A DNA stretch of 64,000 bases. Source: Lama glama (Eukaryota). The stretch lies in assembly GCA_028534125.1 (NCBI GenBank), contig CM052816.1:81842001-81906000 (forward strand), given 5' to 3'. The translations under genes and the position numbers were made by a program. Shown here piece by piece: positions 12,430 through 63,787 of this stretch. Position 1 is the stretch's first letter. Each line of letters opens with the position of its first letter. The notes beneath the pieces were generated by a model that saw only the letters and a program-made list of their open reading frames with translations, did no database searches and was not told the origin of the DNA.

Positions 12430-12640
12430 AGCTGATAGAGGCATTAGAAGTCCCCCAGCCCAATCTTGCAACAATCCTCCAGCCTCTGCTTGATGCCTGC
12501 AGTGGAGGGAAATCCCCTGCCCCTCCAGGCAGTCCACGCTGCTTTGAGCCTATAATGGCTAGAAGAATTTTCCCAGCATGGAGCTGTATCTCTGTCCCTT
12601 AATTTCAGGGCTTTGGCCTTTGTTCTGGCTTCTGGACCAG
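12430..12640 (-). mobile_element. L3/CR1 LINE, 3' segment
   Basis: ccagcctctgcttgatgcctgcagtggaggg...ggcagtcc...agaagaattttccc...ggcctttgttctggcttctgg resembles the antisense L3 3' region. Confidence 0.65.
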
Positions 12641-28790: not shown

Positions 28791-30389
28791 CTGATAAGTT
28801 TCCTTAAATAGTAAACTGCCTTAAGTGCATGCAAAATCAATTTCAATGATAGAGAGTTAAAGTAGAATTCAGTATTTTTCCAGGAGTGTATTAACTATGT
28901 CAAGGGAGGTGCATTTGTATACTTTACCTGGTTCTGATTCTTCTTCTCCCAAAATCTGCCATCCTCCTGCTGCCACATCTGCCTCTACCCCCCAACCACT
29001 AGGTGGTTATTAGCGGAGCAGCGCTTCTTGACTCATTCTAATAATGGAAGAAGGAATTGATGAAGCTAGAACTACCACCTACAGCCAGGGATATGTTCTG
29101 GGATATTCTATTCTGTCCCCAAAAACAGCCATCCCATAGCACATCTGCCAACCTGTTCCTACTTGGCCTCCACTCAGAAGTCACAGACCAGAAAAGCTGG
29201 CCAATAGCAGTACAAGGACCTTAGAGCTCCAGTTCAGAGCAGACTGAGTTGGGAAGGACTAGCAGCTCTGAAAGTCTGGGGCAGGGGGCCAGGGGCCATG
29301 GCCCTCAGTAAAAGCAGATCCAGAGTATTACTCTGCAGACACACTCAGCATCTACCTCCACCATGATTCGTCAAGGCAAACACATCCACCAAAGCACCCT
29401 ACCTCTGTGGGAGGCAAGAGGTGGAGCCAGCTGCAGGAGACAGAGGCAGCTCCTTCCCCCAACACTCCTCCACCTCCAGTCCCAGCACAAGTCTGCAGCT
29501 CTGGAATGCCCTCGTGCCTGCCATTCCAGTCTCTGCGACCAGCCTGTGCCAGACCTTGTCCTCTTCATACTCCAGTGTCCCTTATCAAGGTCTCGCACGG
29601 ATCAGGGCTGCCGAGGACAGGCTTCTGGCAAACTCCAGCCAGGGACCCTGGACCCTCCCCCTACTCAATTCAGCATTGCAGGAAGACAAGCAGCCCAAAG
29701 ACCTAAAACGTCAATGCAAACCCTAGAGAGCCAGGGAGGGAGAAACGAAGAAAAGGCCGGGTTTGGGGAGGAACTCGACTTCAGAGGGAGAGAAGGGAGA
29801 GCTGGATTTCCCCATCCATACGTTCCCTATCTCCCTGGCAGACGCCAATAATTTCACCGAAGATGACCTGGCTCTGTGCGCCTGCCCTCGCCCGGCGCGT
29901 CTCTTTCCCTGGCAGGAAGAGGGTAAGAGACGAGGAAGGGCAAGAGATGAGAAAGCGCGGGAGGATGGATCCCAAGGCGTACCTGAGGCCAGAGCACCTG
30001 GGCACCTCCGCCCTGAAGGAGGGGATCAGGACACGGTCCAGGGACGGGGATCCTGGTCGCGCGCCAGGCAGGGGCTTCAGGCCCTTTGCTGAGTGTGCCC
30101 AGCCGTGCGTCTCGGGTTGTCCCGCTGTCCCTGGCCGATTCTGCCGGGCCCTCTTTCCGCGGCCGCGTCCTCCCCGCCCCCGGCCGGATGCAAGGGGAGT
30201 TTGCGCCGCCCAACGTGAGACCGGGGTTCGGCGCCCTGCTCACAGCCTTGCCGGGGCTGAGATTCCTGCACCCGGATTTGTCACTAAACTTTCCAGGGCG
30301 CACGCGGTTTCGGGGGTGCCAAACCTCCCCCTGAGGCCCCCACCCATCCGAAATCCCACGTCTCAGCCGCAGCGGGACCGTCGCTTCAC

Positions 30390-30545
30390 CTGCACGCGGC
30401 TCGGCGGAGGCTCCGGCTGCTCCTCGCGTCCGGACCCAGGCGCCGCCCGGCGGGTCCCCGTGCCGCTGCCGCCGCAGCTGCCACCGCCAGTGCCACCGCC
30501 GCGCCTGCCCGGAGCTGCAGCGCCGCGGTTCTCCCGCAGCCGCGG
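30390..30545 (-). other. PDZD2: PDZD2 non-coding exon 1 (5' boundary/TSS approximate)
   Basis: Minus strand ..gcagctccgggcaggcgcggcgg..ggggacccgccgggcggcgcctgggtccggacgcg..gccgcgtgcag|GTGAAG with the donor at 30389. Resembles the recalled human PDZD2 5'UTR, and PDZD2 is the next same-strand gene after C5orf22. Confidence 0.82.
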
Positions 30546-30701
30546 GAGGAGAAATCCCAAGCGCCCACGGCCCGGCGGGTCCCCGCAGCCGCCACCAACC
30601 GCGTCTCTCTGCCTGGGGCCGCACGGACCGGCGCCGGGAGTCCACTCCTCACCCGGCTCTCCCAGCTGCGCGGCGCTGGGGATCCACCGAGCCTCCAGGA
30701 T

Positions 30702-30847
30702 GGGCGGGGATTCCCTGCCTCTGGTAGATTCGAGGGGCGGGAACTCCCTTCCTGGAGTGACAGGAACGGGAGGCGGGGATTCCCCGCAGGAACGACAAGG
30801 TGGGCGGGGATTCCCCCGAGCAAGGCACACAGCGGGCAGAGAGTCCC
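30702..30847. promoter_or_regulatory. Array of composite GC-box/NF-kB (kB) sites
   Basis: GGGGATTCCC at 30706, 30775 and 30806; GGGAACTCCC at 30739; degenerate AGAGAGTCCC at 30838. The first four each overlap a GGCGGG box. Confidence 0.8.
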
Positions 30848-30955
30848 TACGGGCCAACCCGGAGTCCTGGGGCGCTGGCTTCAGAAACCTGGGGATCCTG
30901 GGAGGAAAGGATCCAGAGAGATGGCAGCTCAGAATTTCCAGATAGCGGGGCTTGG

Positions 30956-30972
30956 GGCGCCATCTAGGTGGA
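30956..30972 (-). promoter_or_regulatory. Candidate CTCF motif at CpG-island edge
   Basis: Minus strand TCCACCTAGATGGCGCC matches the CTCF core CCASYAGRKGGCRS at 12/14. Confidence 0.4.
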
Positions 30973-32379
30973 AGAGAGTGAGCTAGAGGACTGGAAGTTG
31001 CCTTTGCATAGCATTTTACAGAGCATCGAGAAAAATGTCAGTTGCCTTATAATACAAGAATGGGGCGGAGAGGCCAAAGGAGATGGGGGAGATGGGGGAG
31101 GAGGAAGCCACCCCAAGCCACCCTTGGCCTCTGGTCTTTGGGATACCAAAGTTAATTTGACACTGGTATGAGAAATTCGAGAATTTCGATAATTTCGGGG
31201 AACCTCTTGGCACCTCAGAGCTGCTTAATCCTCCGGTTAAGCCCCTCAGAGAAATCCTCAAAGTCCCGTGGCCCCGGGGTGGTGCTTTTGGTCCTTGTGA
31301 GAACTAGCCAAGAGCTGCTCCTGCTGAGTGGACTGTGACAGCTAATGCCAGTCGCCCTTGGCCCTGTTCCAGGTCACTCGAGGAACAGAAGCCTCTGGCT
31401 TTTCAGATTCCTCATTCCCGAGGATTTTCAGGACGGCCTTCAAATATTTTTGGGGTTTTTTTTTTTTCTGTCATCCTTGTCATTCTGCCTACCACAGGGA
31501 GAGGACGATAAGAACATAATAGGGAGACTGCACAGCTCTGCAAATTAAGCTCCCTTAAGAGGAAAAAGCTGGTCTTTTCCAAGTGCTAGCAGATAAGAGT
31601 AAAAAACATGAAAAATTACCAAACCTGGGATAATGAATAGTTGAATAATGCTTTTGACATTTTCTGCAGAGCAGTAATTGGAAATCTTTGCTTTGGGGGG
31701 ATGGAGATGGGATAGGGCAGGGCTCCACTGCAGCTTTGCCCAGCAAGGCAATAAGCTCTGGTCTCTTGGAAGAGCAGACAGACATAAATCACCTGCACAG
31801 ATTCAGCAGAGCTGTCCCACAGCATCAGAGGCCAGGGTGGTGGTCCCAAGGCATTCAAGATGATATTTTCACAGGGGTGGGGAAGTACTTGAATTCAGCT
31901 GTTCTTCAGCTTTTTAATTACCAGATCACTGAGATCAATGTCTGCACACATCCAACAAGCTATACAAACTTAGGCACCCAGAGTTTCTCTTCCTATCCAT
32001 AAAGAGGAAAAAATACCTTTCAGGCAGGAGTGTTGCTAGGATTGGCAGTAACAGAACTACTAGCACAGCACTTAGGAGGTGCTCGACGAAATGGCAGCTA
32101 CTACCTAGAAACGTAGCACTGGAACACCACAAAAATCCTTCTTGAATCAAACAGGACTGGTGATTCACAGTTCCAGTCCCATATTCCACCATTCTCTTCC
32201 AATCACACAAGCCATGACGAGGCAATGCATGTCTCCTTTGCCCCTGTACCCAGCACCTGCCTCCTTTAGCACCCACTGAAAATTTGCTGAGTAAATGAAT
32301 ATGGAAATAAATTTATGATTCAAACCATAAGCACTGCTGTTTCTTACTCAACCCATTCCCACCCCTTTCTTCCAGCCAT

Positions 32380-38299: not shown

Positions 38300-38799
38300 N
38301 NNNNNNNNNNNNNNNNNNNNNNNNNNNNNNNNNNNNNNNNNNNNNNNNNNNNNNNNNNNNNNNNNNNNNNNNNNNNNNNNNNNNNNNNNNNNNNNNNNNN
38401 NNNNNNNNNNNNNNNNNNNNNNNNNNNNNNNNNNNNNNNNNNNNNNNNNNNNNNNNNNNNNNNNNNNNNNNNNNNNNNNNNNNNNNNNNNNNNNNNNNNN
38501 NNNNNNNNNNNNNNNNNNNNNNNNNNNNNNNNNNNNNNNNNNNNNNNNNNNNNNNNNNNNNNNNNNNNNNNNNNNNNNNNNNNNNNNNNNNNNNNNNNNN
38601 NNNNNNNNNNNNNNNNNNNNNNNNNNNNNNNNNNNNNNNNNNNNNNNNNNNNNNNNNNNNNNNNNNNNNNNNNNNNNNNNNNNNNNNNNNNNNNNNNNNN
38701 NNNNNNNNNNNNNNNNNNNNNNNNNNNNNNNNNNNNNNNNNNNNNNNNNNNNNNNNNNNNNNNNNNNNNNNNNNNNNNNNNNNNNNNNNNNNNNNNNNN
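38300..38799. other. Assembly gap (500 N)
   Basis: Run of N; the round length suggests a placeholder of unknown true size. Confidence 1.
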
Positions 38800-52929: not shown

Positions 52930-53058
52930 ACTTGTTTTTGTTGTTGTTGAGGGGAGGTAATTAGGTTTATTTATTTATTTTTAGAGGTACTGGGGATTGA
53001 GCCCAGGACCTCATGCACGCTGAGCGTGTGCTCTACCACTTGAGCTCTATCCTTCCCC
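52930..53058 (-). mobile_element. vic-1-like camelid tRNA(Ala)-derived SINE
   Basis: Minus strand GGGGAAGGATAGAGCTCAAGTGGTAGAGC..GAGGTCCTGGGCTCAATCCCCAGTACCTCT-AAAAATAAATAAATAAACCTAATTACCTCCCC plus A-rich tail. Pol III A/B boxes present; TSD aatattttta on both sides. Confidence 0.85.
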
Positions 53059-63287: not shown

Positions 63288-63787
63288 NNNNNNNNNNNNN
63301 NNNNNNNNNNNNNNNNNNNNNNNNNNNNNNNNNNNNNNNNNNNNNNNNNNNNNNNNNNNNNNNNNNNNNNNNNNNNNNNNNNNNNNNNNNNNNNNNNNNN
63401 NNNNNNNNNNNNNNNNNNNNNNNNNNNNNNNNNNNNNNNNNNNNNNNNNNNNNNNNNNNNNNNNNNNNNNNNNNNNNNNNNNNNNNNNNNNNNNNNNNNN
63501 NNNNNNNNNNNNNNNNNNNNNNNNNNNNNNNNNNNNNNNNNNNNNNNNNNNNNNNNNNNNNNNNNNNNNNNNNNNNNNNNNNNNNNNNNNNNNNNNNNNN
63601 NNNNNNNNNNNNNNNNNNNNNNNNNNNNNNNNNNNNNNNNNNNNNNNNNNNNNNNNNNNNNNNNNNNNNNNNNNNNNNNNNNNNNNNNNNNNNNNNNNNN
63701 NNNNNNNNNNNNNNNNNNNNNNNNNNNNNNNNNNNNNNNNNNNNNNNNNNNNNNNNNNNNNNNNNNNNNNNNNNNNNNNNNNNNNNN
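63288..63787. other. Assembly gap (500 N)
   Basis: Run of N overlapping a C5orf22 exon. Confidence 1.

Follow-up and report, generated by a model that had tools for sequence, protein, structure and literature searches.

The enhancer of the HIV-1 LTR carries kB repeats alongside Sp1 sites, and NFKBIA is said to possess a kB/Sp1 switch (reportedly Algarte et al. 1999). The kB site of MHC class I enhancer A is the same 11-bp palindrome that recurs in units 3 and 4 of the locus described here. In published work, multiple kB sites are described as giving graded output (Giorgetti et al. 2010, covered by the review PMC6450194), clustered kB sites as acting in synergy (PMC12507517), and Sp1 as acting on kB sites (Hirano et al. 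1998, cited in PMC3002343); 588 kB clusters have been catalogued (PMC11934927), and the kB site of MHC class I enhancer A is treated as A/T-centered (PMC4167904). The window analyzed here is a 64-kb stretch of Lama glama DNA, of which a sequence-only reading had proposed an architecture it was not aware of having been described, with a possible graded NF-kB response; this type of architecture and the idea of a graded response are already in print (PMC6450194, PMC12507517, and PMC3002343). The array may itself be among the clusters of PMC11934927. In the open-licence literature searched, neither a description of the element itself nor a mechanism for the PDZD2 promoter was found.

A scan of the whole window with kB and GC-box consensus motifs identified four units in which a GC box is fused to a kB site in the form GGCGGG-RRNTYCC. 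These units lie between 30701 and 30816 and are the only fused motifs in the 64 kb. Their kB-like 10-mers start at 30706, 30739, 30775, and 30806, followed by a decayed one at 30838, which gives spacings of 33, 36, 31, and 32 bp; the five motif positions and the spacings reported in the sequence-only reading, as well as the GGCGGG overlap in the first four copies, were reproduced exactly. The array sits at the upstream edge of a CpG island. Features of the array and its surroundings are as follows:

30701..30715, unit 1: GC box TGGGCGGGG overlapping kB site GGGGATTCCC (30706-30715); a single inferred change over 15 positions and 16 lineages, at the last base in one lineage
30734..30748, unit 2: GC box GGGGCGGGA overlapping kB site GGGAACTCCC (minus-strand reading GGGAGTTCCC); one inferred change, in one lineage
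30770..30785, unit 3: GC box and 11-bp palindromic kB site GGGGATTCCCC
30801..30816, unit 4: GC box TGGGCGGGG and GGGGATTCCCC
30833..30847, decayed fifth copy: not conserved, probably nonfunctional
30548..30558, previously proposed weak kB-like word: not conserved
30678..30687, previously proposed weak kB-like word: background-level conservation
30749..30764, conserved stretch in the spacer between units 2 and 3: TTCCTGGAG followed by TGACAG
30001..31000, CpG island and TATA-less promoter region, the sole island of the window: GC 0.68-0.72, CpG observed/expected 0.71-0.86
30390..30700, minus strand, likely noncoding first exon of a minus-strand gene (likely PDZD2): putative 5' end; ends at a conserved donor
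30384..30392, minus strand, splice donor CAG|GTGAAG: intron start 30389; 2/64 inferred differences

In each unit, the last four bases of the 9-bp GC box are common to both motifs. All four kB sites are consensus sites with an A/T center, and three are identical. Across the window, kB 10-mers are not enriched (20 strand matches versus 19.15 expected). When the 1-kb island was shuffled 20,000 times with dinucleotides preserved, only 3 shuffles placed four sites within 110 bp, and none contained more than two fused motifs.

The array shares with homotypic kB clusters the presence of several kB sites within ~100 bp by a putative start site; RELA would bind after stimulation, as it does at such clusters, where additional sites should raise output proportionally or more. 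As at shared Sp1/NF-kB sites, GC box and kB site overlap or abut, so that resting Sp1 and induced NF-kB would meet on one stretch; those cases are single composite sites, whereas the array has the composite unit four times, conserved each time. Like the HIV-1 LTR, where site number tunes output, the array combines tandem kB sites and GC boxes at a promoter, but the kB and Sp1 blocks of the LTR lie side by side, whereas in the array every GC box merges with a kB site. The palindrome of MHC class I enhancer A is that of units 3 and 4, and in the array it is repeated, bears a GC-box overhang, and lies in a TATA-less CpG island. The clusters of PMC12507517 typically combine one strong site with weak neighbors, whereas the array comprises four consensus sites (three identical) with the same GC-box overhang and near-fixed spacing in placental mammals. 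The array is strongly conserved, and its unusual points are the fourfold fused unit and the near-fixed spacing.

GC-rich islands give long chance open reading frames (ORFs), which automatic gene callers deposit as proteins, and orthologous DNA was reached through such deposited translations of this CpG island. Three protein searches, for which frames of the island itself served as queries, gave 10, 11, and 17 matches, and the set comprised 64 proteins after cluster members were added, 62 of which were grouped by script and by eye into 17 mammalian lineages. Named sources were Globicephala melas, Bos javanicus, Fukomys damarensis, and Macaca nemestrina; the Globicephala melas record ends just before the array, which is covered by an unnamed protein clustering with the whale record. 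Each protein was aligned to the window with frameshifts allowed, and base differences were inferred at nondegenerate positions; all conservation counts are therefore inferences from translations rather than from DNA alignments, and the lineages are not independent. Two proteins were excluded before counting: P0052, whose alignment over 30 residues fell outside the region, and the single ENA record P0044, which lacks units 1 to 3 and has a start common to the primate-group proteins. Spliced or chimeric ends were masked in seven proteins. Because the queries contained the array, matches are biased toward array retention; a separate count was made in the 13 lineages detectable from the flanks alone.

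The sequence of the primate-like P0044 breaks off shortly beyond unit 4 and resumes within the exon, as an artifact or a rare deletion; its jump over units 1 to 3 is a probable assembly artifact. The proteins in general (P0001 to P0064, 29707-30945) are chance ORFs of the island, some of them misleadingly named (proline-rich protein, splicing factor-like), and a coding function was rejected since reading frames shift between lineages. A metagenome pattern scan (20/64 parts; at least 117 loci) found no orthologue, and a protein search with the minus-strand frame, restricted to 393 to 2000 residues, gave no match.

Across the 17 lineages, differences from the window numbered 3/486 in the kB 10-mers, 6/247 in the GC-box overhang, 75/644 in the spacers, 35/167 in copy 5, and 638/4112 in the flanks. 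Five of the six overhang differences fall at 30771 in unit 3, where the window itself is the outlier: its A is specific to this lineage (G in 6/6 informative lineages), and the GC box of unit 3 is weakened here. Measured as deviation from the commonest state, the counts were 1/267 for the GC-box overhang, 4/793 for the cores, 54/699 (7.7%) for the spacers, and 545/4576 (11.9%) for the flanks (Fisher P = 2e-14 for core versus spacer and 9e-4 for spacer versus flank, values that are too small since lineages were treated as independent). The 13 lineages detectable from flanks alone gave 1/389 for the kB sites, 0/194 for the overhang (without 30771), 61/515 for the spacers, and 523/3519 for the flanks, and at the residue level, with one protein per lineage, differences were 3/214, 0/64, 55/295, and 486/1796, respectively. 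All 60 core positions were informative in at least four lineages, and the named records alone showed 0/27 (Bos), 1/28 (Macaca), and 0/28 (Fukomys) kB differences. Every one of the best-conserved 25 of 799 13-base windows overlaps the four units. Unit 4 carries a single inferred change, C to T at 30813 in the primate group, which remains compatible with GGGRNNYYCC.

These counts uphold the earlier proposal of a selected homotypic kB cluster in which cores are better conserved than spacers, and the GC-box overhang belongs with the cores. Three proposed members dropped out: copy 5 differs above flank level, and the weak words at 30548 (23/99 differences) and 30678 (13/110) are at background or worse. 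Spacers had been regarded as leftovers free to diverge, but their sequence is under mild constraint and their length under strong constraint. The spacer between units 2 and 3 showed 11/271 deviations versus about 12% in the flanks, with zero changes at 30755-30762, and part of it may serve as a partner-factor site. Within this stretch, TTCCTGGAG is a putative STAT/BCL6-like site with one mismatch, and TGACAG a putative TALE-homeodomain-like site.

Conservation cannot tell which factor reads the overhang. It is conceivable that the kB sites are real while the overhang is read by E2F/DP or another zinc-finger protein, or reflects an extended NF-kB preference, with no Sp/KLF exchange: all four GC boxes are 1 to 2 bases off the 10-base Sp1 consensus, and unit 2 contains the only plus-strand GGCGGGAA of the island, an E2F-type word. 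That word, however, is confined to one unit, whereas in every one of the four the conserved overhang continues for two bases on the 5' side of GGC, the length that a 9-bp Sp/KLF site requires, and includes the G at 30771 of every informative lineage other than this one. We regard a different reader of the overhang as distinctly unlikely.

All 16 of the 16 lineages that span the array have one extra base right after unit 3, so that the usual spacing is 33, 36, and 32 bp. The array has 6 indels in 1840 nt, whereas the two flanks have 88 in 3821 nt and 34 in 2303 nt (0.33 versus 2.3 and 1.5 per 100 nt; P about 1e-8), an approximately sixfold depletion that omits the base lost here after unit 3 and that an open-frame requirement could also favor. 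Sparse core changes together with this depletion indicate that both overlapping motifs and their spacing are constrained, and comparison of the inferred sequences shows that purifying selection acts in placental mammals on the GC box and the kB site of every unit and on the 33/36/32-bp spacing.

The regular spacing, common orientation, and decayed fifth copy are also what a decayed minisatellite in a GC-rich island, without present function, might leave behind. Such an origin without function is contradicted by the conservation counts, since cores are ~20-fold less variable than flanks (flank variation about 12 to 16%) and the spacing is fixed across 16 lineages, and Tandem Repeats Finder did not report the array; we find this explanation scarcely credible. 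A tandem-duplication origin as such is plausible from the same orientation, spacing, and fifth copy, and old divergence is compatible with it. The tandem-repeat origin given in the sequence-only reading is not supported: the four spacers are not significantly alike (summed similarity P = 0.15), and the two copies of CAGGAACG, taken as a repeat-unit relic, do not line up in the same register. At 30765, the base is G in other lineages (5/5 informative), at 30793 it is mostly T (12/16), and the P value of 0.023 for this shared 8-mer in the window rests on two lineage-specific changes. Since the identity of the two copies is specific to this lineage, it does not demonstrate a tandem-repeat origin.

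Three changes specific to this lineage, G to A at 30765 and at 30771 and one base lost just after 30784, each raise local inverted-repeat complementarity and may reflect quasi-palindrome-templated mutation. Repeated palindromes might also form a conserved hairpin, in upstream antisense RNA or as cruciform DNA. The array does fold better than shuffles (z of -4.3 on the plus strand and -3.0 on the minus strand), and with cores fixed, 0.4% of 500 spacer shuffles fold equally well. Yet variation in the spacers is higher at paired than at unpaired bases (36/386 versus 18/313), 36/57 inferred changes break their own pair, and neither a canonical G-quadruplex pattern nor an Rfam match was found at the array. 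Conserved RNA structure and a G-quadruplex were rejected on the pair-breaking changes and the missing pattern, and a conserved hairpin of either kind is very improbable.

Phasing of all copies on one helical face had been proposed and does not follow from the spacing. At 10.5 bp/turn, copies 1 to 4 fall at 0, 51, 206, and 189 degrees (resultant 0.08, unchanged with the usual 32-bp step), which places units 1 and 2 on one face and units 3 and 4 on the opposite one. Alignment of the units on one face arises only at 11.0 bp/turn (resultant 0.78).

No TATA box was found at the promoter region. The minus strand is without an ATG between 30348 and 30900, and the donor at 30389 is conserved (2/64 inferred differences versus 25/75 at a rival donor-like site at 30652); the NCBI model P0034 of Bos javanicus departs from the genomic frame at this donor. 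Lack of a minus-strand ATG and the conserved donor point to a gene that most likely runs leftward on the minus strand from a noncoding first exon, with the array just upstream. Within this likely exon, a patch at 30437-30452 has 1 to 2% inferred differences versus 12 to 16% around it. The Macaca nemestrina model P0039 links the array region to a segment that matches 31316-31384 (minus strand), which hints at a predicted upstream exon reading through the array. Other observations in the window include a single strong kB site, GGGAAATCCCC, at 12507-12517, ~18 kb into the likely first intron; an Rfam tRNA match (31 bits) beside an AT-rich tail at 52982-53054, probably a tRNA-derived SINE; and two 500-base assembly gaps (38300-38799 and 63288-63787).

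The gene name PDZD2 given in the sequence-only reading fits synteny, strand, and peak offset, but no coding exon was recognized in the window (ORF translations read by eye, those of 55 to 89 aa for 24-50 kb). The island promoter very probably belongs to PDZD2, on these circumstantial grounds. The 71.6-Mb contig with the Bos javanicus record has the size of the PDZD2-carrying cattle chromosome. From the array center to the conserved donor is 368 bases, and the center of a human RELA peak common to four cell types precedes the GREAT start of PDZD2 by 368 bases, a match that counts only if the annotated PDZD2 start is close to the exon end, as it probably is. Among comparison genes in the RELA peak lists, GHR was without a proximal peak (4/4 rows), and NIPBL had proximal peaks, none of them in the four-cell-type sheet (8/8 rows); RAI14 and EGFLAM were also compared, over 9/16 and 9/14 rows.

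In PMC7835376 (supplementary file 10), a RELA peak at PDZD2 -582 appears in the open-mode top-8000, the cross-species "preserved" (mouse or cow), and the top-ranked post-TNF sheets, the last of which total 4,412 peaks, and is not in the top-ranked pre-TNF sheet. The sheet common to four cell types lists PDZD2 at -368, and further PDZD2 peaks lie at +215, +389, and +459 kb. The check for RELA occupancy that had been suggested finds a human peak just upstream of PDZD2 (PMC7835376), which may coincide with the array; the gene link is indirect. If the gene is PDZD2, the human data in that source show chromatin that is already open in unstimulated cells and to which RELA binds strongly once TNF is added. 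PDZD2 is up 35.7-fold by IL-1beta in human myometrial cells (PMC3823442 Table 4) and 2.1-fold by HTLV-1 Tax (PMC3537563).

The intragenic RELA peaks could explain PDZD2 induction without the array. In mouse hair placodes, Pdzd2 marks an outer ring, outside the zone of Edar (NF-kB) targets (bioRxiv 2022.11.03.515012). PDZD2 was absent from the supplementary files searched of three NF-kB target studies, namely, PMC2718928 (4 files), PMC12507517 (1 file), and PMC6147668 (12/13 files; 30,913 characters), all of unspecified list content. The placode pattern, the intragenic peaks, and the absence from three supplements count against a simple link from NF-kB through the array to PDZD2.

MHC-type kB palindromes are preferred by p50 homodimers and HIVEP proteins, and units 3 and 4 are 11-bp palindromes of this type. 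The array might then be mainly a brake, with p50 or p52 homodimers or HIVEP/ZAS zinc-finger proteins on GGGGATTCCCC keeping the promoter low. All four sites, however, are A/T-centered, the class from which RelA activates (PMC4167904), the human peak is one of RELA, top-ranked after and not before TNF (PMC7835376), and PDZD2 is induced (PMC3823442); a predominantly repressive role is quite improbable.

We favor, with a probability of about 0.72, the reading that the four conserved kB sites, together with the conserved GC boxes fused to them, constitute a direct NF-kB response element at a CpG-island promoter that is likely that of PDZD2. Near-unchanged units at near-fixed spacing suggest that inflammatory signals likely switch the gene up directly. 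At rest, Sp/KLF proteins would occupy the GC boxes and the island would stay open; after TNF or IL-1, p50:RelA dimers would take the kB sites. The structures of Sp1 fingers and Rel dimers imply that one unit cannot hold both factors. Since the two motifs share four bases, competition and not cooperation is expected within a unit, each of which would hold Sp/KLF or NF-kB, one at a time. Output would then climb with the number of units occupied by NF-kB, although graded output is borrowed here by analogy from other genes. A stricter version, in which the array is a rigid four-position toggle whose units are held by Sp/KLF or NF-kB and whose 33/36/32-bp spacing sets two in-phase pairs on opposite faces, is tentative and on balance unlikely.

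The analysis illustrates that deposited chance-ORF proteins can substitute for orthologous promoter DNA. Through the array, the multi-PDZ gene PDZD2 becomes a candidate for direct and conserved control by NF-kB. PDZD2 has been linked with insulin secretion and, weakly, with the response to anti-TNF treatment (PMC3084508), the latter through a SNP in the latter part of the gene, outside the array. With its four strong, near-identical units and their conserved spacing, the array is also well suited as a natural system for distinguishing independent from synergistic kB sites and for assessing the role of Sp/KLF displacement. Should the toggle prove true, geometry and site number would together shape the dose response; the array would then be an enhanceosome-like kB array found in nature, in contrast to the flexible arrangement usually assumed, and PDZD2 would be a hard-wired NF-kB target across placental mammals.
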